DNA of 64,000 nt. Source: a virus (taxonomy: Duplodnaviria; Caudoviricetes). A program made the position numbers and the translations under genes. Below are positions 800 to 16,764 of this stretch, in pieces (the first letter of the stretch is position 1; every line of letters starts with the position of its first letter). The DNA is taken from positions 351 through 64,350 of the IMG/VR virus record IMGVR_UViG_3300042261_000033. The stretch is one strand, 5' to 3'. The notes below the pieces were generated by a model. It made no database searches. It was not told the origin of the DNA and saw only the letters and a program-made list of their open reading frames with translations.

Positions 800-1045
800 G
801 TTATTTTTAATTCTTCCACCCATAGACCCCCCTACCCCATAGGGTAGAGAGGAGAAAGGTGTTCCACCCCCGATAAACGGGTTCGTCATGATAGCGTTAG
901 CCATCCCCTCGGCCTGACGATACGACCAGCCGCACGGATTATTCGGGAACTGCCCCCTAGCCTTTCGGCATACCGTGTAACCCTTTACTCCCACGCCATC
1001 AGGTTGAATGCTTACTATCGTGTGGGGTACGGACGGATTGAGGCA
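800..1045 (-). ncRNA. Candidate structured leader RNA
   Basis: Nested stems 832-837/842-847, 858-861/865-868, 869-872/878-881, 883-888/915-920, 933-937/973-977 and a GAAA-tetraloop hairpin at 960-969. Confidence 0.45.
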
Positions 1046-1220: not shown

Positions 1221-1507
1221 AGGGGTGGGCTGGCGTTGACAGTTTTCCCGACTGCAACCTTTTCTCCACAGAATTGATTGAAGCCAGCCCATTGAAGAGG
1301 GAGGGGGCTACCAAATCCATTCCGGTTAAGAATGAATACCCCCATTGGGTGGGGCAGCTAGTTCGCTCAAAAACTATAAACGAGTGTAGTCCCTTTCGGT
1401 TATACAACGTTGGCGCTGCCCCGTAGGTGGGTACTCGCTGCGTCTGGCCGATAGTGCCAACCGGAGTCCCCCAGTCAGCTTCTCAACACAGCATCCGCTT
1501 TCCCCGC
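1221..1507 (-). ncRNA. Array of four stem-closed small RNA cassettes
   Basis: Closing stems 1227-1234/1283-1290, 1303-1307/1339-1343, 1351-1358/1415-1422 and about 1429-1445/1489-1505, each followed by an ACC/UCC 3' tail; directly downstream of a consensus promoter. Confidence 0.6.
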
Positions 1508-1512
1508 TGATG

Positions 1513-1541
1513 ATTATACGAACGTTCCTACTTTAGTGCAA
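1513..1541 (-). promoter_or_regulatory. Sigma70-type promoter driving the small RNA array
   Basis: TTGCAC-17 bp-TATAAT; the spacer contains the palindrome GAACGTTC (1520-1527). Confidence 0.8.
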
Positions 1542-1590: not shown

Positions 1591-1665
1591 CGCACTCTCC
1601 GAATTAAGCCTCCGAAGTGTGTCCCCCTAGATAGGGCAGTTCAGTCGAGCTGCCCTATTTTTTTT
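1591..1665 (+). ncRNA. Predicted trans-acting anti-RBS small RNA
   Basis: Stem CGCACT/AGTGTG presents loop AATTAAGCCTCCGA (1602-1615), the reverse complement of the repeated RBS TCGGAGGCTTAATT; ends in an intrinsic terminator. Confidence 0.75.
1631..1665 (+). terminator. Rho-independent terminator
   Basis: ATAGGGCAGT...GCTGCCCTAT hairpin followed by a T8 run. Confidence 0.85.
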
Positions 1666-2018
1666 ACTTCGATTGTGCAACGCGGATTTTCCTTGTCCAG
1701 ATGCCAATAGCAATGGCGTTCTTTTACCTGCCTGTCGTTCATATAGGCCACACCCTGCAGCAGATCAAGGATCAATGACTCATCAAGATCAGGACGGCGA
1801 GACGCGTACCAGATATGCAGCGTTACACACACGTCATCCACGAATGGTTCGTGTCCAAGTTCTTTCGTTTGCTCAATGAATCCCTTGCTGTAGTCCAGTG
1901 CTTTCTTCGACTTGATGAACATGGAACGCCCACCGATACGCACTGCACGGCGACTGTTTGCCTTACTCGCAGGCTCGCCATAGACGGTCAATGAAATAGT
2001 TTGTGATTGTGCTTGCAT
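1641..2018 (-). CDS. rusA: RusA-like Holliday junction resolvase
   Basis: VYGEPASKANS N-terminus, RRPDLD...ILDLLQGVAYMNDRQV acidic motifs, DKENPR C-terminus. Confidence 0.8.
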   Translation of the reverse strand: MQAQSQTISLTVYGEPASKANSRRAVRIGGRSMFIKSKKALDYSKGFIEQTKELGHEPFVDDVCVTLHIWYASRRPDLDESLILDLLQGVAYMNDRQVKERHCYWHLDKENPRCTIEVKKIGQLD

Positions 2019-2975: not shown

Positions 2976-3603
2976 AGCCCGTGTGGCATTCCTGAAAGCG
3001 CCAGTCAAGAAGTCTGGCAAGAACAAGTTCGCAGGCTACGAGTACTTTGAGCTTGGCGACTTCATCCCAACAGTTCTTGGCATCCTTGATGGCCACGGCC
3101 TGTGCGGCATCGTCCACTTCGACAAGGAGATGGGCTATCTGGATATCGTTGACAGCGAGAGCGGCGAGAAGGTTTCGTTCACCACGCCAATGGTGTTCGC
3201 ATCCAATCCAAAAGGTCAGGCTATTCAAGACCTCGGTTCGACACACACATACATTCGCCGTTATCTGTGGCTGATGGCTATGGAAATTGTCGAGCATGAC
3301 GCAGTTGATAACCAAGCCCCTAGTGAAACCCCTAAGCCTGCAGTTCCAGCCGCTCCTGCGCCCACGGCGCAAGCCGTAGAGCCATCTGTAGCTGAAGTTC
3401 TTCAGCCATCTTCAATGGAGCAGGAGTTCCTTGTTGAGAAGCTGACCGAACTAGCCACTGTCATGCAGACAGAGAAAGAACTTACCGACCTGTGGAAGGC
3501 TAACCAGAAGCAGATCGATGGTCTCAAGACTAGCAACACCAAGCTGTTCAGTACCCTCAAGGCAAACTTTGCCGAAATCAAGTCCAACATCAAAGGAGCA
3601 TAA
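2950..3603 (+). CDS. erf: ERF-family ssDNA annealing protein
   Basis: KSGKNKFAGYEYFELGD and GSTHTYIRRY motifs; paired with the exonuclease. Confidence 0.85.
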   Translation: MSVYKKLSEARVAFLKAPVKKSGKNKFAGYEYFELGDFIPTVLGILDGHGLCGIVHFDKEMGYLDIVDSESGEKVSFTTPMVFASNPKGQAIQDLGSTHTYIRRYLWLMAMEIVEHDAVDNQAPSETPKPAVPAAPAPTAQAVEPSVAEVLQPSSMEQEFLVEKLTELATVMQTEKELTDLWKANQKQIDGLKTSNTKLFSTLKANFAEIKSNIKGA

Positions 3604-7922: not shown

Positions 7923-8226
7923 ACAGTGGTATCGCATACTGCAGGAGCATGGCTGCATCATCTGCGTGATTGAAGGCCGGGGTAAAAGCCCTAGCGATAT
8001 GCACCACATACTGAAAGCCGGAAGAAGGGTGGATGATTTTCATACCATCCCCCTTTGCTTCCATCATCATCGGTCAGGAATCAATACGCCTGACGTTGTG
8101 AGCCGACATCCTTGGCGCAGGGAATTCGAGAAGCGCTACGGATCCGAATGGGATCTATTCGAGCGCCTCAAGGAATCACTGGTTGAGACCCAGCTTCTCA
8201 GCGACCTCGACTCCCTTCCGAGCTAA
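7873..8226 (+). CDS. Ref-like (HNH-type) recombination enhancement nuclease
   Basis: GCIIC...MHHI...TIPLCFHHHR...FEKRYGSE pattern; start may be GTG 7912. Confidence 0.75.
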   Translation: MNAQNAWSGSRRAVKIEQWYRILQEHGCIICVIEGRGKSPSDMHHILKAGRRVDDFHTIPLCFHHHRSGINTPDVVSRHPWRREFEKRYGSEWDLFERLKESLVETQLLSDLDSLPS

Positions 8227-11200
8227 GTTCGCCTTGATGGCCTTGTACTTGTTAATCAGATCACGCTTCTGGTCTGCGGTGATGTTAGTCGCATCCTGAA
8301 TACGCTTGATCTCATTGTTAAGCTTGGTCATCTCATCGGATATCTTGGCCAGAGGAGCGCGAGCGATCATTGCTTTCTTCTTCTCTGGATCTGCCAAGAA
8401 GTCATGGATCTCCTGCGCATTGCCAGTCTTCTTCAGATCATTGAACTCGGTGTAAGCCTGAGTTGCATTGCTCTGCAGATCATAGAAGGTTGCGACAGAC
8501 CGGTTAACCGTTGGATCAGTCATGAACGAACGGATGAACGGCATGTCTTCCAGATTGCGGGTTGGCTTCTCTTTGCCTGTCACGCCGTTGATCACAGCGT
8601 CACCCAGTTCAAACGAGAACGATCCAAGCTGGGCAAAGTAACCGCTCATCAGGTGATCGATCTTCGCAGGCGATAGACCTATTCCATCCAGACCAATGTT
8701 GCTCAGCATCTTGGCTGTCTCTGAAGCGCGAGCGCCACGCATTGCCACGGGCTTGCCTTGATCGCCCATGCCTTCGATAGGACGACCAGTGAAGAACGAG
8801 TGGTTCGTGATAGTTTCGATGATTGGGTTGAATGCCTGCGGGATTGGATTGCCGCTGGCTGGCAGGTTGTGGATTAGGCCGGTCTTGTACGAGGCCAGTA
8901 GTTCTTTACCCGTTGAATCATTATTTAGGTAACGGATGAAAGCTTCAGGCATCGTCTTGAACAGGAAGCCCAATTCGAATGGCACAGGAACAGTGATGAA
9001 CGACTTCTTGGTTGGATCAGTCGAAGACGGAACAGGGATCAGCCAGTTGCCATCCTTCTCATAATCAGGAACTTCGTCGTAGTCCTTATCGCCTGAGTAC
9101 ATCATTGCGTAAGCAATCGTGCAGGCCGTCATCATCATTGCGCGTGAGGCAAATATACGGCGAGCTGCAGCAGCTTCTTCAGGGTTCAGGCCATGACCAG
9201 TCATAGCGCGATACACGGTATCCAAGCTGGTGATCTGCGCAGACAGGAATGGAATCATCTGACGCAGGTTAGCCATCACTGGCGAGTTACCTTGTACTGC
9301 GAAGTTGATTGACTCGCGAGCCTTGAACACAGCGGTGTCACGCGCACGTTCGTGCGACATGCCGTCAGCAATAGCCTTCTTGTAAGCGGCCTTGTAGATG
9401 GCAACACGGGTTGCGGCATCAGACGCTTCATGGATATGCATTGCCTTGTTAATGGCTTTGTCAATGAAGCTTGGCTTACGGTTGCTTTCTTTGCCGACCG
9501 AATCCAGATACTCATGGATGTTCATGGTGTTGCCGTACTCACCGATAACGCCATGTGCCGACAGGATGTTAACCACTTCGCGGTCGCGGCCAAGGGTCAG
9601 GTTCACGAACTCTTTGGCTGCATGCAACGGGGTAACCATTACGTCAGTAACCATAGAGGCGTGGATCGGGTCACGAATAAGCTGCTTGACCCAGAACATT
9701 GGGTTAAGCAATGCACCCCAGCGCAGAGCCTTAGTCGTTGCGCCAAAGGCCTTCATGATCGGACCCATCTGGTAGCTCATCGACTGGAATGCAGCAACAG
9801 ACAGTTCGTCTTCTGCGTATACAGTAATCTCTTTGCCGTCGCGACGATAGCGCAGGTTAGCGCGTGGGTCAGTCTTATTGACTTCAAAGGCTGCACCGAC
9901 AGAAGCCAGTTGTTCAGCAGCTGCTGCACGGGTCTGGTTCTCAAACGCCAGAGCAGTCATCTTTGCGTACTGCTTGTTAACGTTTTCCCAAATGTTAACG
10001 ATATGCTCGCCGCCTTCCAGACGCTTCATCTTAGGTGTGGACTTAGCGCCTACACCGCCACGGAAGCCGAATACAGCGTTCTCATCCAAGTCTTCAGCCG
10101 ACTTGAACAGAGGGACGTAGTGATCCTTAGCTAGATATTCAGCTGCAGTCTTTTCATTCAGCAGGCCGACGTCTTTCCACAGGCGAACCAGACCGTGGTT
10201 CACTTCCTTCCAGATGTTCAGAACTTCACGGACTTGAGGGATGGTGTTGTACAAGTGTTCTGCGTAAGCAATCTGCTCAGGAGTGACAACCTTCTCACGG
10301 TTGATCTTCTGTTGCGCACGGCCTTCGCTTGCCTGCAGACGAGCTTCCTTCTCAAGCTTCTTGGCCTTGGCCATCAGCTTAAAGGACTTGGCCGTCTTGC
10401 CTTCTTTGGAAAGCTTTGTGGCCTCTTCCTTCATCTGGGCTGCTCGTTCCATATCCACCGCTGCGGCAGCAACCATGCGACGACCTTCCTCGCGGATGGC
10501 TTCGTCTTCCTGCATGATGTCCTTACCACGTAAAGCACGGGCAACTTCGCCAACCAGCAGTCTGCCGTTCATGCCTTGCTCTACGCAGATTGGATGCGTA
10601 TCAAGCTGGTCTGCGATGATCTGGCCACGAGCCAGATTGTTTTCGCTTTGCTGAATAATGACTGTGCCATCAGTATTCAGGACTGGAATGCCAGACTGCA
10701 TGCCGTTACGAATCAGGTTAATGTTCTGGTCTTTGGCATGGTTCAGGTAGTCAACACGCAGCTTGCCATCGGCATCCATCTTGGCCAGCTTGTTAAGCTT
10801 GGCGGTAAGGCCAGCAGACTTGTCGATGTACTTAACACGTTGCTCAGTACGCCAATCAGAACTCTTGATGGCGCCATACATGTTGTTGACAGTCTGGATA
10901 ACGGCTTTGCCGCCAGTGGCCTCATCAGTCAGCTTGGTGTTGTTTAGCTTGCGCTTGCTGTAGCGGATGTCGCCTGTCTCGTTGTACGTGCCAACATTGC
11001 CAACAGCAGACTTGATCTGGTTGGGGCTGTAAACTGCCAAGTTCTTACGGCCAGCTTCATTGATATAGAAACTGTCAAAGCCTGCGTTACGAATTGCTTC
11101 TTGTACGGCCTCCGTCTCGATGACTTCCCAGCTGCCAGCGCCTGCTTTATTGGCAAACAGCTTTGCTGACGTCATCGTGTCGATGTCGTTGCCGCGCTCT

Positions 11201-14200
11201 TGAGAGTCTAGCGCCATCTGAATACCAACCCGTTGCAGATGCTTTGGATTGTCGTAGTCGAATGGATTCTCTGCCCGTACATATACAGGCATGATGTTCG
11301 CATTGCTGGCAATGTTGTCGCGGATCATCGGTTCAATGATCATGCGCAGAGGGCGGTACGCACCGCTGATGTCGTCCTTGTATTTCTCAATCAGGTCCTT
11401 ACCGGCCTGTTTGGTGATCGACTCATCTTTCACCAAACTGCGAACAGCTTCATTAACCAGCTTGCGCTTCTCAGCTTCTGACAGGCTGTCGTAGTACTCG
11501 GCAACCATATAGTCAGAAGACAGCTCAGAGAAGTCTTCTGCGAACTTAGGGTCATCGGTAACGAAGATGGCGCCAGCTTGTTTAGGCTTGAACTCAGTGA
11601 TGTCACGAGCCGTGCCGTGGTACATGATCTTTGGCTTGCCGCTATCGTCGACAATCTTCGAGTTGCCGAACCAACGCTTGAAGTTGGTGTTGCGCTGAAC
11701 GGCAGGGGCTAACTCCTCTGCTTTGCGCAGGCTGTAACGGATGTCCGATTCGTACTTGCTCGGACGTTGATTAAACGCTGACTTGATCTGCTGATTGTAA
11801 AGTGCTGCATATGTGTCGTAGCCACGTTCTTTAGCAAAGATGCCGTCGTAGCCAAGCTCACGAAGCTTGCTTGCAAACAGCCCGTCATTAACGATTCTGT
11901 AGACTGGATCGCTCCAATTAAGATCGGTAAGGCCAAAGTCTTCCATTCGAAGGCCAAGCTTAGACATGACGCGAGTGAACCCGCTTTGGCCAATGGTCTT
12001 GTCCAAGTCCTGTTCAATTATCAATGGATTCTTGATGGAAAGGAACGCTGGGTAAATAGCGGTCTCTTTAGCATAAGCCTCTGCCAGTGCTGGATCTTTT
12101 GCAAACCAGATTGGCTTGTCTTCATTGAATACTGCGATTCCACCAACCTCTGACACATCAGAATCTTCTTGATCTGTGCCGTGGTAAACCTGCATTGGCT
12201 TACCATCTTCGGTTGTCACTTGACTTCCTTCAAACCATTCTTTGAACTCAGGAGTCTGCGGTGCGCGTAGGCTGAACTTGGCAATAGGAATAACCTTCTT
12301 GCCTTCGCCAAACTTGCTTTGATCCTGAATGACAACGGTGTCGCCATCACGCTTAGGATCGTAGTCAACAAAGAAGCCATTGTACTTAGCAGCAGCTTCT
12401 TCTGGCTTGGTTGTTCTGTCCTTGTTGGTCAGGCCAACAATCATGCCAACGCCGTCTTCACGCTTCGGATCAAGGAAGCGAGCATCGTAGTTGTCACCGT
12501 CCCAGACTTGGAAACGCTGGCCGGTCTTCTCATCAACCACGAACTTCGGCATGCTGTTACGGTCAGTGAACGCCATAGCAACGTTGAAGCCGTTGTTCAT
12601 GCGCTTGACCATGTTGTCCCAGTTGCTGTGCTGGTTGTACACAGACTTGCCGTTAACCGTCTGCGACACACCGGTCGAGCTGTATGTCAGGTGATGGTTA
12701 GGTGCAATCGAATTGGTTGGCAGCTTGGTGTAGTCATAGAACATGATGTCAGGGAATGAATTGATGATTCCCTTAAACACGTTAGGCGGGAAGTCGCTTG
12801 TTACGTTCAAGCGGACTGCGCCCTTGTAATCGTTCTTATCTGCCCAGTTTTGCAGCGACTGAATCTCTGAATGCAGGATGATGGCAAAGGCTTCTGGATT
12901 CTGTACGAACGCTTCAGTCTTCAGGTACTGCGACAGGCGTGGGCCTTGACGGAATTGACCCTTGCCGCCATACAGTTCGTTCTGACCAGACGTCTCGCCA
13001 AGGCACAGACCTTCGCAGATAGCCGACTTAGGACAGGTGGACAGATTCTTCTCGTTGATCTTCTGCGCAGAGGCCAAGCCAAGACCCATCGATGCAACGC
13101 TCTTGCCTTCATAGGTCAAGCCATAGTCGCCAACACGGGTCTTCTCAAGCTTGCCATTCTCAGACAGCAGGGTCGTGATGTTGTGCATCTGCTTCAGAAC
13201 TAGCTTGGCTTCTTTCTTCAGAGCCTTCTTGTCTTTGGAGCTGGCGCTTGCGTACAGGTCTGTTGCCTCCTGAACCCTGCGCTCAAGGTCTGTGAACTTT
13301 GTGTCTTGCGACAAAGCTCTTGCACGAGGAGCGTCCAGCGTGAACAGCTTGGTCATCTTCATCTTATTGAAGAACGACTGACCTTCTGCCAATGGAATAA
13401 AGAAGTCTTTACGACCGTCTTCAAACTCCTGATCCAGTTGCAGCATGGCGGGATCAACATGAACCATTACGTTCGCGCCTTCCATAGGCGTGTCGATATT
13501 GCCCGGCTTGGCCATGACATTCTGGCCTGCGGATTCGTTCGTCAGGTAGATGCGGGTTGCTTCTGGCGTTGCTCCAACCAGCTTCTTGTCGCGCAGGATC
13601 TGGCGAGCGAGAGCGTTCGTGGTTGGAACGTACAGGGTAACCGTGCCGTTCTTGTTTACTGGAATACCAAGGATCGGGTGATTGCCTTGTGCGTCTGTGC
13701 CAAAAGCTTCGCCTGCGTACTTGCCAGTCTTCTTGATGGCGTACTTCGGCATATCGGTTGGAACATCAACGCGGCCTTCAGAAAGGTACGGGTTCTCACC
13801 GGTCTTTTCTTCGTACTTCTCTGCCATCTTCTTGGCAAAAGGAGTGGCCTTCCAGTTGTTTGTCTTGGCTGCGTTAGCTGGGTATTCCTTGGCTTCTTCC
13901 TTCAGGCTGTACTTCTCGCCTTCTTGGCGTTGACGCATGATCTTAACTGCAGCGGGTCGTATCTCATTGAGGTACGTCATCATCGCATCTTTGTCGCCAG
14001 CAGCCTTAAGTCTATCGGTAATTCCTTCAACGACTTTATCAATAGCGTTCCAAGCTCTCTGAGATAGAACGTTACCATTGTAATCGGCATTGTTCTTCAC
14101 AAGAGAATTTGCAACACGCCCAATGCCATCGGCAATAATTCCTTCACGGGTTGCCAGATCGCGCTTGGCAAACTTAGCCTGATACGCAGGAGCTACATCT

Positions 14201-16764
14201 GCGCCGCCATACATAGGAGCAAACTCGCCGCGTTCCACGCCAGCAAATATCTTGTCGGTGGTATCAAAGCCGCCTTGCTTAAACGTTCCTGCCAGCTTGG
14301 CAAAGAACTCTTTCAGCTTACGGAAGATAGCACCGATACGGCCAGCTGGTGGTTTAGTCTCAGCGAAATGCTTGAACGCTTCAGCAATAGCTTCTTCTTC
14401 CATGTACTCTTGGAAGCCAGCTTCGTTGCCGTTGTTATCAGCCATGTACTGCTGGAAGTAAGCCTGCTGCATCTCTGGTGAGAAGTGCTGATTGATCCAC
14501 TGCTCACGGGCTTTCTTAGACAGCACGTTCCATTCATCTGCAGTGAAAGCACCGGTCTTCTTCAGGGCGTGAATAACCTCATGGCGCAGGGTGGCCATTG
14601 GGTTCTCAGAGTCTAATGCGATCTGGATGATGTTGCGGAAGTACGCTCCATCGGCAGCGCCATTATTAATGCTGTCAACGAGCTTAAGAGCGACGTTGCT
14701 AAGGCCAAAGCGACGCATAGCAGGAGCAAGCTGAGACTTGACTTGATCTGCGTAAGCTTGAGCTTCTGGCGTGTACGCTGCGCCCATCTGATTAAGGCTG
14801 TATTTCGCATCTGGATTGCCTGCGTTAGCTTGATCAACGGCAGCATCGATATTGCCTTGAGCCTTGGTTGATAGACCTTGAACAGTGATCTTCTGCTCGG
14901 CAGAACGCATAAACGGTGGCGTACGCAGAGCCTCCATCTGTTCAGGTGAATAGACCTTGCTTGCTGCGCTGAGCGTCAGCTTCTGGTCTGATGTGCGTTG
15001 GAAAGCTGGTGTGTTAAGAGCGTCAGCAATAGCTTCAGGGGCTGGAGGAGCAGGCTGTTCAACTGGAGCTTCAGTCGGCATAGCTGCTGCGGCTTGCTCA
15101 CGGTCAGCTGCCAGCTTATCCCAAGCCTCTTGGCTTTCATCTGGCTGGCCATAGCGAACGGTCTCACGAGGAGCGCGAACAGTTTCAATGGCTGGAGCTT
15201 CGGCAGCAGGTGCGCCTTCGACTCGGTCATACATCTTCTGATCTGGGAAGAACTGATCTAGCAACTGGGCTTGAGCCACGGTAGCCACGCCATTGTTTTC
15301 TTCAACAGAACGCAGGGCATTGTCCACGGCAGCATGAATTTCTTCTGGCGCAGCCTGAACTTGGGTTGCGGCCTGAGCAGCGGCCTGACGGCGCTGCCCT
15401 TCAGCAGCAGCCTGTTCCAAAGAAGAAACAGGAACCTGACCAGTTCCCTGTAAAGAAGCGGCTTGCAAACGTTGCGCAACCTCCTCCGGTGGGGTTGTCT
15501 CAGCTTTGCGTGCTGCGCGTTCAGCCATAGCTGCGTCAACACGTTCTTGCTCAGCTTGAGCCATACGCTCCTGACGGCGAGCCATTAGCTCTTCGATAGG
15601 GGTTGGTGCGTACTGAGGCGCTTCAGGCGCAGCAGGGGCTGTTCCCGTGGCTTCTGGAGGCATTCCGGCCGGAGGAGGAACGAAGCCTTCTGGAACTTTA
15701 AGCTCAGGAGCTGGTGCTTGCGCTCTCTGCGAACGAAGACCGCCGACCGTACCCGGAACGACCGACATGCCGAACGAAGCGGCTGCGGTGTTGATGTACT
15801 CATCGATAGCATTACGATCTGCCAAAGGCAGGCTTGAGCCGTATCGTTCTGCTGCGCTCTGCAGTAATTCAGGCGGGACTTCTTTTGCGCCAGTGAACAG
15901 AACGCTTTTGCCGACGTTCATCAGCATGTTCTTGGTTGGCTTCGACAGTCCGTCTAAAGCACCCAGACCAATCTTCTCTGACACGAAGTCAGCGGCTGCG
16001 TGTACAGCTGCAGCAGGGAAGATTTCAGACATGTTCAGTTCATGAATGTCTTTGCCCTGAGCCTGCGCTTCTTCAATAGCACGACTGCCAACTTCACCAA
16101 AACCATGATAACCAGCCTGAGTTATCAGGCCAAGGTTTAAACCAAGTTGTTTCTTTGCTTCCTTAGCGATATAGGCTTCAGCTGCGTCTTCGCCCTTCTC
16201 TTTGAGGATCTTCTCAGCGGCTTCTTTAACACCCCTCTTAACCAAGCTCTTGCCAAGAATACCGCTCAATGCACCACCGGCTGTACCGGCAACAGGAACG
16301 GCAGAGCCAACTGCAGCGCCGCCTAGGGCTACAGCACCGGTTTCAAGGATGTTTGCTGCGCCTTGACCAATCTGGTATGGAAGCCAGTCTGTCAGGACGG
16401 ATCCAATGCCTTTTTCCCATGCATTGGTGAATGTGTCTGTTTCTTTGGCTAGTGGACGCTGTTTCTCTTGGCCAGCCTTAATGTTCTCAAGGCCATGCTC
16501 CGTCAGATACTTGGCTATGCTGCTATCTTTGCCGAGCAGTCTTTCTGCGCCAAGTCCGAGTACGGCCTGTGCGCCACCAAACGTTTCTTGCGTTTGAGGC
16601 ATGTATGCCTTGAAGCCACGGGTGACATCCCACGATTGATCTGCCTTTGGCAGAGACTTCATCTGCTCCAAGACGGCGGCGTAAGCCTGCTCGTCCGAAA
16701 GTTCTGTAGGAGAATCAACTTTAAAAGTCCCCTCTCCGGGGACATCAATGTTGTAACTCGGCAT
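8176..16764 (-). CDS. Giant polyvalent ejection protein (metallopeptidase-like, Gp88-like, two ART-PolyVal-like and LPD38-like domains)
   Basis: HEVIH at 14569-14583; CPKSAICEGLC/RLNVTSD/FYDYTK/DGDNYDARFLD; two FKxWF..S....GKP...YHGT...QIKSA units; C-terminal VPVPFELG...NHSFFTGRPI; last gene of the virion block. Confidence 0.85.
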   Translation of the reverse strand: MPSYNIDVPGEGTFKVDSPTELSDEQAYAAVLEQMKSLPKADQSWDVTRGFKAYMPQTQETFGGAQAVLGLGAERLLGKDSSIAKYLTEHGLENIKAGQEKQRPLAKETDTFTNAWEKGIGSVLTDWLPYQIGQGAANILETGAVALGGAAVGSAVPVAGTAGGALSGILGKSLVKRGVKEAAEKILKEKGEDAAEAYIAKEAKKQLGLNLGLITQAGYHGFGEVGSRAIEEAQAQGKDIHELNMSEIFPAAAVHAAADFVSEKIGLGALDGLSKPTKNMLMNVGKSVLFTGAKEVPPELLQSAAERYGSSLPLADRNAIDEYINTAAASFGMSVVPGTVGGLRSQRAQAPAPELKVPEGFVPPPAGMPPEATGTAPAAPEAPQYAPTPIEELMARRQERMAQAEQERVDAAMAERAARKAETTPPEEVAQRLQAASLQGTGQVPVSSLEQAAAEGQRRQAAAQAATQVQAAPEEIHAAVDNALRSVEENNGVATVAQAQLLDQFFPDQKMYDRVEGAPAAEAPAIETVRAPRETVRYGQPDESQEAWDKLAADREQAAAAMPTEAPVEQPAPPAPEAIADALNTPAFQRTSDQKLTLSAASKVYSPEQMEALRTPPFMRSAEQKITVQGLSTKAQGNIDAAVDQANAGNPDAKYSLNQMGAAYTPEAQAYADQVKSQLAPAMRRFGLSNVALKLVDSINNGAADGAYFRNIIQIALDSENPMATLRHEVIHALKKTGAFTADEWNVLSKKAREQWINQHFSPEMQQAYFQQYMADNNGNEAGFQEYMEEEAIAEAFKHFAETKPPAGRIGAIFRKLKEFFAKLAGTFKQGGFDTTDKIFAGVERGEFAPMYGGADVAPAYQAKFAKRDLATREGIIADGIGRVANSLVKNNADYNGNVLSQRAWNAIDKVVEGITDRLKAAGDKDAMMTYLNEIRPAAVKIMRQRQEGEKYSLKEEAKEYPANAAKTNNWKATPFAKKMAEKYEEKTGENPYLSEGRVDVPTDMPKYAIKKTGKYAGEAFGTDAQGNHPILGIPVNKNGTVTLYVPTTNALARQILRDKKLVGATPEATRIYLTNESAGQNVMAKPGNIDTPMEGANVMVHVDPAMLQLDQEFEDGRKDFFIPLAEGQSFFNKMKMTKLFTLDAPRARALSQDTKFTDLERRVQEATDLYASASSKDKKALKKEAKLVLKQMHNITTLLSENGKLEKTRVGDYGLTYEGKSVASMGLGLASAQKINEKNLSTCPKSAICEGLCLGETSGQNELYGGKGQFRQGPRLSQYLKTEAFVQNPEAFAIILHSEIQSLQNWADKNDYKGAVRLNVTSDFPPNVFKGIINSFPDIMFYDYTKLPTNSIAPNHHLTYSSTGVSQTVNGKSVYNQHSNWDNMVKRMNNGFNVAMAFTDRNSMPKFVVDEKTGQRFQVWDGDNYDARFLDPKREDGVGMIVGLTNKDRTTKPEEAAAKYNGFFVDYDPKRDGDTVVIQDQSKFGEGKKVIPIAKFSLRAPQTPEFKEWFEGSQVTTEDGKPMQVYHGTDQEDSDVSEVGGIAVFNEDKPIWFAKDPALAEAYAKETAIYPAFLSIKNPLIIEQDLDKTIGQSGFTRVMSKLGLRMEDFGLTDLNWSDPVYRIVNDGLFASKLRELGYDGIFAKERGYDTYAALYNQQIKSAFNQRPSKYESDIRYSLRKAEELAPAVQRNTNFKRWFGNSKIVDDSGKPKIMYHGTARDITEFKPKQAGAIFVTDDPKFAEDFSELSSDYMVAEYYDSLSEAEKRKLVNEAVRSLVKDESITKQAGKDLIEKYKDDISGAYRPLRMIIEPMIRDNIASNANIMPVYVRAENPFDYDNPKHLQRVGIQMALDSQERGNDIDTMTSAKLFANKAGAGSWEVIETEAVQEAIRNAGFDSFYINEAGRKNLAVYSPNQIKSAVGNVGTYNETGDIRYSKRKLNNTKLTDEATGGKAVIQTVNNMYGAIKSSDWRTEQRVKYIDKSAGLTAKLNKLAKMDADGKLRVDYLNHAKDQNINLIRNGMQSGIPVLNTDGTVIIQQSENNLARGQIIADQLDTHPICVEQGMNGRLLVGEVARALRGKDIMQEDEAIREEGRRMVAAAAVDMERAAQMKEEATKLSKEGKTAKSFKLMAKAKKLEKEARLQASEGRAQQKINREKVVTPEQIAYAEHLYNTIPQVREVLNIWKEVNHGLVRLWKDVGLLNEKTAAEYLAKDHYVPLFKSAEDLDENAVFGFRGGVGAKSTPKMKRLEGGEHIVNIWENVNKQYAKMTALAFENQTRAAAAEQLASVGAAFEVNKTDPRANLRYRRDGKEITVYAEDELSVAAFQSMSYQMGPIMKAFGATTKALRWGALLNPMFWVKQLIRDPIHASMVTDVMVTPLHAAKEFVNLTLGRDREVVNILSAHGVIGEYGNTMNIHEYLDSVGKESNRKPSFIDKAINKAMHIHEASDAATRVAIYKAAYKKAIADGMSHERARDTAVFKARESINFAVQGNSPVMANLRQMIPFLSAQITSLDTVYRAMTGHGLNPEEAAAARRIFASRAMMMTACTIAYAMMYSGDKDYDEVPDYEKDGNWLIPVPSSTDPTKKSFITVPVPFELGFLFKTMPEAFIRYLNNDSTGKELLASYKTGLIHNLPASGNPIPQAFNPIIETITNHSFFTGRPIEGMGDQGKPVAMRGARASETAKMLSNIGLDGIGLSPAKIDHLMSGYFAQLGSFSFELGDAVINGVTGKEKPTRNLEDMPFIRSFMTDPTVNRSVATFYDLQSNATQAYTEFNDLKKTGNAQEIHDFLADPEKKKAMIARAPLAKISDEMTKLNNEIKRIQDATNITADQKRDLINKYKAIKANLARKGVEVAEKLGLNQ

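Follow-up and report, generated by a model that had tools for sequence, protein, structure and literature searches.

The DNA analysed here, hereafter the window, is 64,000 nucleotides long and makes up nearly all of a 64,350-bp virus record of IMG/VR (IMGVR_UViG_3300042261_000033). Direct terminal repeats are present, and the genes of this freshwater phage include terminase, portal, SU10-type adaptors, a recombination module of Erf, exonuclease and RusA, a primase-helicase and a polyvalent protein of 2862 amino acids. The rusA gene lies on the minus strand (2018-1641). Beyond it stretches a gap of about 860 nt that has no credible gene and ends at an ATG at 781. The first third of this gap holds the subject of our study, an array of four small structured units on the minus strand (1505-1222), each closed by a G/C-rich stem and followed by a tail like the acceptor end of a tRNA. 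A first-pass annotation of the window had described such an array and read it as a precursor of small RNAs. The observation is confirmed by our analysis; the interpretation is partly supported.

A leftward promoter had been predicted ahead of the array, and a promoter-like site, TTGCAC-17-TATAAT, is indeed read on the minus strand at 1541-1513 (TTGCAC 1541-1536, a 17-nt spacer, TATAAT 1518-1513). The −10 hexamer is perfect and the −35 hexamer matches at three of six positions, which is why the site is absent from the list given by a consensus promoter scan. Its transcript would be expected to start near 1506, 0–2 nt ahead of the first paired G of unit 1. Within the spacer lies a palindrome, GAACGTTC (1520-1527), which occurs seven times in the window where 0.88 copies are expected; none of 100 shuffles reached seven. 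This over-representation suggests that TTGCAC-17-TATAAT is a regulated promoter. The copies are at 1520, 2280, 45494, 53576, 53634, 55134 and 62950, mostly as GAACGTTCG, and two of them directly adjoin a −10-like hexamer, which suggests an operator of a phage regulator.

The units are tightly packed, with spacers of 3, 3 and 8 nt. Each starts with a G, the first base of a G/C-rich closing helix that we call the clamp, and on the 3′ side of the four clamps stand ACC, ACCC, UCCC and ACCCC. Unit 1 (1505-1426) has a GGG/CCC clamp, a bulged-G motif, a 10-bp apical hairpin and an ACC tail (1428-1426). The motif strands are GAA (1502-1500) and AGUA (1435-1432), followed by an irregular helix (AGCGGAUG/ACGCAGCG) and then a second helix; in the RNA family described below the irregular helix is invariant and the second one covaries. 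Unit 2 (1422-1347) has an 8-bp clamp (GGGGCAGC/GCUGCCCC), a long hairpin with the CC-GAAA-GG hairpin of the first-pass annotation at its tip, a second hairpin of 5–6 bp that abuts the clamp, and ACCC. Unit 3 (1343-1299) is smaller, with a clamp of 5–6 bp, a 9-bp hairpin with two G-U pairs and the UCCC tail. Unit 4 (1290-1222) has a clamp of 8–9 bp (GGGCUGGC/GCCAGCCC), a small hairpin, an 8-bp hairpin with a 7-nt loop, and ACCCC. The larger hairpin of unit 4 had been likened to the T arm of a tRNA. It does stack on the 3′ clamp strand with zero linker, but its loop, CGGGAAA, is no T-loop. Sequence comparison bears out the earlier picture of a constant end, clamp plus ACC, around unrelated interiors.

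The 473-nt stretch that includes the array folds with a z-score of −4.5, and none of 100 shuffles folded as well. Taken singly, the units differ: unit 1 reaches only −1.1 (+0.4 on the plus strand), unit 2 −3.59 (one of 200 shuffles as good; plus strand −1.8), unit 3 −1.30 (20 of 200; plus strand +1.79) and unit 4 −3.54 (none of 200; plus strand −4.61). Fold energies and G-U pairs favour the minus strand for units 1–3. We also applied a simple clamp rule to both strands of the whole 64 kb: a perfect stem of at least 5 bp that starts with GGG, a span of 25–95 nt, and then A, C or U followed by CC. Four sites satisfy the rule and three of these are units 2–4. A genome-wide count of four is no enrichment (the shuffled mean is 7.3), and the signal lies in the clustering: three or more sites within this 290-nt region arose in 0.05% of 2000 shuffles. 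No U run of the kind that marks an intrinsic terminator follows any of the four units, the open reading frames (ORFs) that overlap the units have no Pfam or PHROG family, and blastn of 780-1700 against GenBank phages gave no match.

Comparison with other phages places unit 1 in an RNA family that is new and well supported; we call it R1. Relatives found by way of RusA have no blastn similarity to the array at the DNA level, yet their sequences, when read, have this frame with another middle inside it. In viral contigs a degenerate pattern matched at least 117 stretches, most of them by chance, from which members were chosen by bases outside the pattern. Together with ten loci on contigs of bacterial genomes and the RusA-derived loci L003 and L008, the set comprises at least 61 distinct copies, the window's included.

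An R1 RNA begins with a clamp of 3–6 bp, mostly GGGG/CCCC. Next comes 5′-GAA-3′ facing 5′-AGUA-3′, that is, the bulged-G or loop E motif. Beyond it, an invariant strand, AGCGGAUG, faces (AC or U)GCAGCG, and between the two, G-C pairs can be read that interleave with purine-purine pairs. The element is completed by a helix that covaries, an apex of 25–60 nt that is hypervariable and falls into several classes, and the ACC tail. The apex of one class (L044, L050, L082, L128) carries a single-stranded box, UCAAGGAUAG. None of the 50 sequences of alignment A1 departs from the GAA/AGUA strands, which the collecting pattern itself demanded. A G-C pair flanks the GAA/AGUA of R1 in the register known from the sarcin-ricin loop and loop E; unlike in the sarcin-ricin loop, GAA/AGUA adjoins the open end of the RNA and not a GAGA loop. 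The GAAA/GAGUA internal loop that the first-pass annotation saw in unit 1 contains this motif, and the motif is the hallmark of the covarying family.

The pairing of R1 is well supported by covariation. In 30 training sequences 87.9% of cells were paired and 11 of 14 pairs showed double changes; slid controls were 29–46% paired, and none of 500 shuffles reached any of the covariation measures. A covariance model of R1 found 65 matches (63 distinct) at E≤0.01, in 64 sources, with 87.5% of cells paired and 127 double-change cells. Its single match in the window is unit 1 (1422-1510, 57.1 bits, E 1e-12), a copy that belongs to the training set. Units 2–4 give no match at E≤10 and are not members. 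We then have a sample that owes nothing to the RNA, since its 80 loci were picked by homology of a neighbouring winged-helix protein. R1 is present in 31 of them, always on the strand of the gene, and in these copies 90.3% of cells are paired, 13 of 14 pairs show double changes and again none of 500 shuffles does as well. The stem covariation whose absence from homologues had been named as refuting the earlier reading is present for unit 1, and the comparative evidence identifies R1 as a conserved RNA family under selection for its present structure.

R1 is apparently undescribed: it is absent from Rfam 15, and we found no description of it in the literature searched. No known family that combines a loop E motif with an ACC tail emerged from the Rfam searches. 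The Burkholderiales-1 and Polynucleobacter-1 alignments were considered and set aside; in the part of supplement file 5 of Weinberg 2010 that we consulted, their sequences differ from R1. A small ORF within R1, with the clamp as a Shine-Dalgarno-like sequence and an AUG in GGAUG, was also rejected: the G of the AUG varies and the peptides are unrelated.

R1 is carried by phage contigs and by prophages of Cupriavidus and other Betaproteobacteria. A strict R1 pattern found ten contigs of bacterial genomes, six of them betaproteobacterial, including three Cupriavidus isolates, and the five genomes searched for copy number hold one or two copies each. With an R1 copy as blastn query, the single relevant record among GenBank phages was MW202879.1, in which an unannotated R1 lies between two coding sequences, 3 nt past the first and 10 nt ahead of the second. 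This position is typical. By simple ORF calling, in which some neighbours may be wrong, 43 of 62 loci have a same-strand ORF whose stop lies 0–11 nt ahead of R1, and 35 of 62 have a same-strand ORF start within 26 nt. The neighbouring genes are diverse, and the upstream gene frequently ends in an SSB-type tail. The first-pass annotation had a single promoter drive the array. A promoter-like site does precede the array in the window, but most R1 copies are not promoter-driven and sit between two genes of an operon.

One junction, between ssb and a winged-helix (wHTH) gene, can be followed through 76 related loci. It holds R1 in 30, other GAA/AGUA clamp elements in 14, other elements in 7, a bare 5-bp mini-hairpin in 10 and nothing in 15. 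Six of the seven other elements are of the clamp type when read by eye, and 19 of the 21 non-R1 elements end in ACC, also counted from the rows by eye. An integron attC-like site was considered for this junction and rejected, the junction elements having no GTT-type 3′ core. Among relatives, for example L021, L032, L043, L052, L083 and L107, tandem copies and arrays of mixed content are met. With such tandems, mixed arrays and varied slot contents recurring, the array of the window is no isolated oddity but the extreme form of a repeated habit.

A single homologue of unit 2 is known, from another phage (L155), where it lies close to a tRNA gene. The clamp of the homologue is preserved by a compensatory change from A-U to G-C, and a 5-nt insertion rules out coding. 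The order in L155 is the unit 2 homologue, 5 nt, a different unit with clamp and ACCC, 0 nt, and tRNA-Thr(TGT), which scores 71.7 bits with the Rfam tRNA model. The same slot is filled by an R1 copy in L076 and by the array in L155; the polymerase-like genes that come next are homologous. A search of viral contigs with a second unit 2 word found only the L155 contig again. Unit 2 also occurs in freshwater metagenomes, on short separate contigs that end at 1347/1348 and at 1413-1424, the borders of the unit. By this comparison unit 2 is a conserved cassette. A metagenome scan with a unit 2 17-mer gave a further 38 stretches, all judged to be chance matches. An 18-mer scan of viral contigs found no homologue of unit 3, and the one match among viral contigs to a unit 4 18-mer lies inside a coding region and was dismissed as chance. 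Units 3 and 4 are plausible as orphan cassettes, without homologues, on the strength of their predicted folds.

Two R1 loci carry further links to tRNA. The interior of the R1 of L123 aligns with the Rfam tRNA model at 27.7 bits, just below the cut-off of 29, with D arm and T arm aligned and with the scaffold GAUGCUG/CAGUG-C in the place of the acceptor stem. The conserved inner helix of R1 looks like a degenerate acceptor stem, which a leader-trailer duplex of loop E and clamp lengthens; this duplex ends again in ACC. In L118, R1 lies about 75 nt ahead of tRNA-Asn. T4 offers a precedent, its species 1 and 2 RNAs being stable non-tRNA RNAs within a phage tRNA gene array, and L155 shares that tRNA-style layout, with a non-decoding unit 2 homologue beside a tRNA. 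The window differs from phage tRNA arrays in having no tRNA, with cassettes of 45–85 nt, complex bodies and ACC without a conserved A; R1-type cassettes differ in lying usually between protein genes.

The reading that we prefer, to which we give an even chance, is that the units are cassettes of a modular class in phages of Betaproteobacteria and are excised by RNase P as tRNAs are. Each cassette would consist of a variable folded body held by a G-started, G-rich/C-rich clamp and followed by R-C-C. One precursor would be transcribed from TTGCAC-17-TATAAT, by read-through from rusA, or both. RNase P would cut at the 5′ side of each clamp, and the 3′ ends would be trimmed back to ACC, to leave four stable small RNAs. 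Transcription, RNase P cleavage and stability of the products are here predictions from sequence.

Bacterial RNase P reads the terminal helix of its substrate, and the GGU of its L15 loop pairs with R73, C74 and C75, according to the section of PMC4919922 used here; the non-tRNA substrates given there include pre-4.5S RNA, mRNAs and the phage C4 RNA. The corresponding sequence determinants are present in the window: all four units have G at position +1, and the tails are of the RCC type, with unit 3 having U where R is expected. Across the R1 family, ACC follows the clamp in 33 of 60 copies under a greedy rule, and in 45 of 60 if a terminal U-A pair is left uncounted in 12 further rows (by eye). 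In the 33 copies, ACC is followed by U 19 times, by C 9 times and by A 5 times. Since this base is not conserved as A, selection appears to act on R-C-C, which pairs with L15, and not on an aminoacylation end. What the cassettes conserve is exactly G+1 and R-C-C, and from this we infer release by RNase P followed by 3′ trimming.

The best structural analogy for R1 is pre-4.5S RNA, the RNA of the signal recognition particle (SRP). The R1 rod, like that RNA, is a long irregular hairpin with G-rich and C-rich ends, and 4.5S RNA ends in a paired G-rich/C-rich helix followed by an ACC-type tail. The likeness stops at the level of shape: the sequence of R1 is different, it has no SRP domain IV motifs, and Rfam gives no SRP match. 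Pre-4.5S RNA is an RNase P substrate (PMC4919922, in the section used).

A number of observations weigh against excision by RNase P. Among 60 R1 copies the base before the clamp (N−1) is mostly C (37 copies), with A in 10, U in 7 and G in 6, and the RNase P of E. coli and of B. subtilis is reported to prefer U (PMC4919922, same section). The R1 clamp is short, 3–6 bp and only 3 bp in unit 1 of the window, and is followed by non-Watson-Crick pairs, so that there is no classic 12-bp stack of acceptor and T stem. Some 22 bases of R1 are invariant, well beyond the needs of RNase P; a loop-E scaffold conserved this strictly suggests that a conserved host factor binds it. Within the array, the C-rich 3′ strand of each unit can pair with the G-rich 5′ strand of the unit that follows, and a hairpin at the junction of units 2 and 3 (1356-1337) is the only junction to pass a loose terminator scan. 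The evidence for units 3 and 4 is all thermodynamic; the fold of unit 3 is weak (z −1.3), and that of unit 4 is matched on the opposite strand. Unit 2 has the L155 homologue and no second one. A tRNA lies near R1 in only one of 63 loci scanned, and the 15 empty junctions among 76 imply that the cassette is dispensable. Lastly, none of the RNA sequencing runs checked contains the array stretch. As for a partner protein encoded by the phage, Pfam searches of 94 ORFs turned up neither an RNase P protein nor a CCA-adding enzyme, an RNA ligase or a protein of the Ro type.

We also considered a bolder proposal, which makes a joint claim of an end module, release by the host's tRNA-processing machinery and action on the host. 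A universal G-clamp with an ACC end would be a plug-in system that lets any body sit between genes or in arrays, and the bodies would act on the host; we offer this as speculation that is rather unlikely to hold in full. The same low expectation attaches to two elaborations of it. The end module might often be reinforced by a loop-E scaffold derived from an extended tRNA acceptor stem, and the released RNAs might serve, for example, as decoys or sponges for readers of acceptor ends or of loop E, including defence toxins that modify the 3′ ends of tRNAs.

Among the alternatives to RNase P-excised cassettes, the one that survives best, possible though doubtful in our view, is that these are intercistronic rods for processing, stability or insulation that act independently of RNase P. 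They would be cut by RNase III or RNase E, or would block exonucleases, and would set separate levels of the upstream gene (often ssb) and the downstream gene; their bodies would have no function in trans. The close fit of R1 between cistrons (after a stop in 43 of 62 loci, ahead of a start in 35 of 62), the frequent SSB-type tail of the upstream gene and a slot that may hold a bare 5-bp hairpin or nothing are all as this alternative expects. The hypervariable apex suits it too, and with about 24 pair-equivalents the R1 rod is as long as substrates of RNase III, the intergenic sites of T7 for instance. Those intercistronic RNase III sites are likewise structured elements packed tightly between cistrons, where they direct the cleavage of polycistronic RNA; they have no ACC tail and follow no G+1 rule. 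Processing rods of this sort leave much unexplained: why ACC is kept after clamps of differing sequence, why G stands at clamp position 1, why a cassette abuts a tRNA with zero spacing, and why some 22 non-helical bases of R1 are invariant. The units of the window, moreover, are not between genes and are arrayed after a promoter-like site. Organelle transcripts are likewise punctuated by tRNAs or by tRNA-like t-elements. The t-elements are among the few alternative substrates identified for the protein-only RNase P, PRORP (PMC4919922, in the section used). They are organellar, and neither they nor the T7 sites share sequence with R1.

An invariant irregular helix with a bulged-G motif is a typical platform for a protein, and the unit 1 scaffold could on that ground be a cis-acting binding site, either an operator or an antitermination site like put or nut. 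We judge this improbable. The setting in the window gives it some substance. Downstream of the array, and not part of it, lies a second promoter, TTGACT-17-TACACT (1211-1183, minus strand), which the consensus scan does list, together with a 136-nt hairpin; the module spans 1211-1046. The hairpin ends in an intrinsic terminator (fold z −6.77), and a transcript of the array would first meet a terminator there, at about 1046. On an antitermination model, as improbable as the parent idea, transcripts from the upstream promoter would pass this terminator and those from the second promoter would stop at it. R1 stands just after a −10-like element and upstream of the promoter-plus-terminator module in the window and in L003 and L008, and in L028 a hairpin like an intrinsic terminator directly follows R1. 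Against a cis-acting site, most R1 copies are far from promoters and have no downstream terminator in the loci read, the 94 phage ORFs include no candidate RNA-binding protein, and units 2–4 and the ACC tails go unexplained.

The first-pass annotation had placed the array beside the antisense RNAs C4 of P1 and CI of P4, with variable payloads aimed at phage or host RNAs. We take the CI RNA of P4 to be grouped with the C4-type antisense RNAs; a loop-E scaffold like that of unit 1 is not known from C4. As an explanation of the array, immunity RNAs of the C4/CI type whose loops pair with phage or host messages now seem decidedly improbable. The general layout is shared: C4 of P1 and P7 is a structured small RNA that a phage encodes and that is cut out of a longer transcript. 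It has a terminal helix and an RCC-type 3′ tail, and it is listed among the non-tRNA substrates of bacterial RNase P (PMC4919922, in the section used). Some R1 apex classes do retain a single-stranded box such as UCAAGGAUAG. The array differs in its unrelated bodies, and we found no antisense boxes with targets. The C4 family (RF01695) and related c4 motifs have no match in the window at the gathering threshold; C4-type models of Rfam give none even at E≤10 in 700-2100, nor at E≤1 in 14 R1 relatives, and membership is not supported. The search for payloads also came back empty, with no convincing complement in the 64-kb phage: the longest is 15 nt, to the non-coding strand of erf, a length that one of 100 shuffles reaches. 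Nor do R1 apices pair any better with their own 150-nt flanks than with foreign ones: in 55 loci the duplex energies were equal (median rank 28 of 55). The 15 bases concerned, in the apex of unit 1 (1474-1488, minus strand), are identical to the sense strand of erf (3432-3446, plus strand) and form an inverted repeat 1.9 kb apart; the identity is probably due to chance.

A last alternative, that tRNA genes have decayed here or that hairpins arose by chance in G+C-rich spacer DNA, is hardly credible, and for unit 1 it is largely refuted. Covariation and invariant bases over at least 60 copies mark selection on the present structure, and the clustering of clamps with NCC is matched in 0.05% of 2000 region shuffles. 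In favour of this alternative, the R1 of L123 encloses a degenerate tRNA core, and for units 1 and 3 about 10% of shuffles fold at least as well. The possibility, named beforehand, that units would score as tRNAs or tRNA pseudogenes is not what we find in the window: ARAGORN reports no tRNA gene there, and RF00005 has no match at E≤10 in 700-2100. Rfam searches of the window, of ten RusA loci, of 14 R1 loci and, at E≤5, of seven further loci matched no unit, apart from the sub-threshold tRNA match in L123.

If these elements are cut by RNase P, the class of natural non-tRNA substrates gains more than 60 R1 copies and at least 20 other clamp elements, and phages would be using the tRNA-processing machinery as a general system for release of small RNAs and punctuation of operons. 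R1 itself is a compact conserved fold that brings a bulged-G motif, a purine-purine run and an acceptor-like end together in one RNA. The series of contents at one junction, from nothing through mini-hairpin, minimal loop-E element and full R1 to an R1 that bears a tRNA, offers a rare view of the growth of an RNA family. The presence of R1 in cultivable Cupriavidus lysogens makes direct testing possible.

Other structured elements occur near R1. A second RNA frame (L003 4205-4310, L043, L057, L073, L101, L107, L137) often lies directly 3′ of R1. It has an outer helix (CCNACACG/CGUGUUGG), a CAU/AGY internal loop, a covarying helix and a hypervariable body of 30–90 nt, and no Rfam match. A third element is found downstream of R1 in L016, L043, L052, L107, L129, L082 and L128, with a hairpin loop of GUGGCGAGUAAC-like sequence and a second helix that ends in CCCUGC-ACC. 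Small genes adjacent to R1 (L052, L057, L111, L078 and L126, and upstream in L050 and L128) encode peptides of about 49 amino acids with a signal-like N-terminus and a Cys-rich C-terminus (...CTTCCYGGNCNTTCN); these may be secreted Cys-rich peptides.

The rest of the gene-free gap in the window has features of its own. The promoter-plus-terminator module (1046-1211) is kept in relatives, in three of them right after a cro-like gene, and its layout recalls that of lambda, where a late promoter is followed by a short RNA and a terminator. Directly after the terminator, and about 30 nt before the ribosome binding site of the gene at 781, lies a conserved structured RNA of about 220 nt (812-1035, minus strand). 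It is present in ten distinct relatives, two of which have an insertion of about 150 nt exactly in one hairpin loop. RNAalifold on eight sequences gives 45 pairs, eight of them compensatory, and a long-range closing helix; Rfam has no match. The ORF 308-994, which overlaps this RNA, is probably spurious upstream of the ATG at 781. On the other side of the array a strong terminator-like hairpin with a T run (1629-1668, plus strand) faces the 3′ end of rusA from the opposite strand, and L002 and L005 have such a hairpin, oriented likewise. The hairpin may point to antisense transcription of the non-coding region or to a terminator that works in both directions.

Further afield, the polyvalent protein of 2862 amino acids (8176-16764, minus strand) has ADP-ribosyltransferase (ART-PolyVal), LPD38 and GP88 domains and is probably an ejected virion protein. 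Beside a RusA-bearing relative, L009 holds a fragment of a tmRNA gene (831-910, minus strand; 58.7 bits), which fits a prophage integrated at ssrA.

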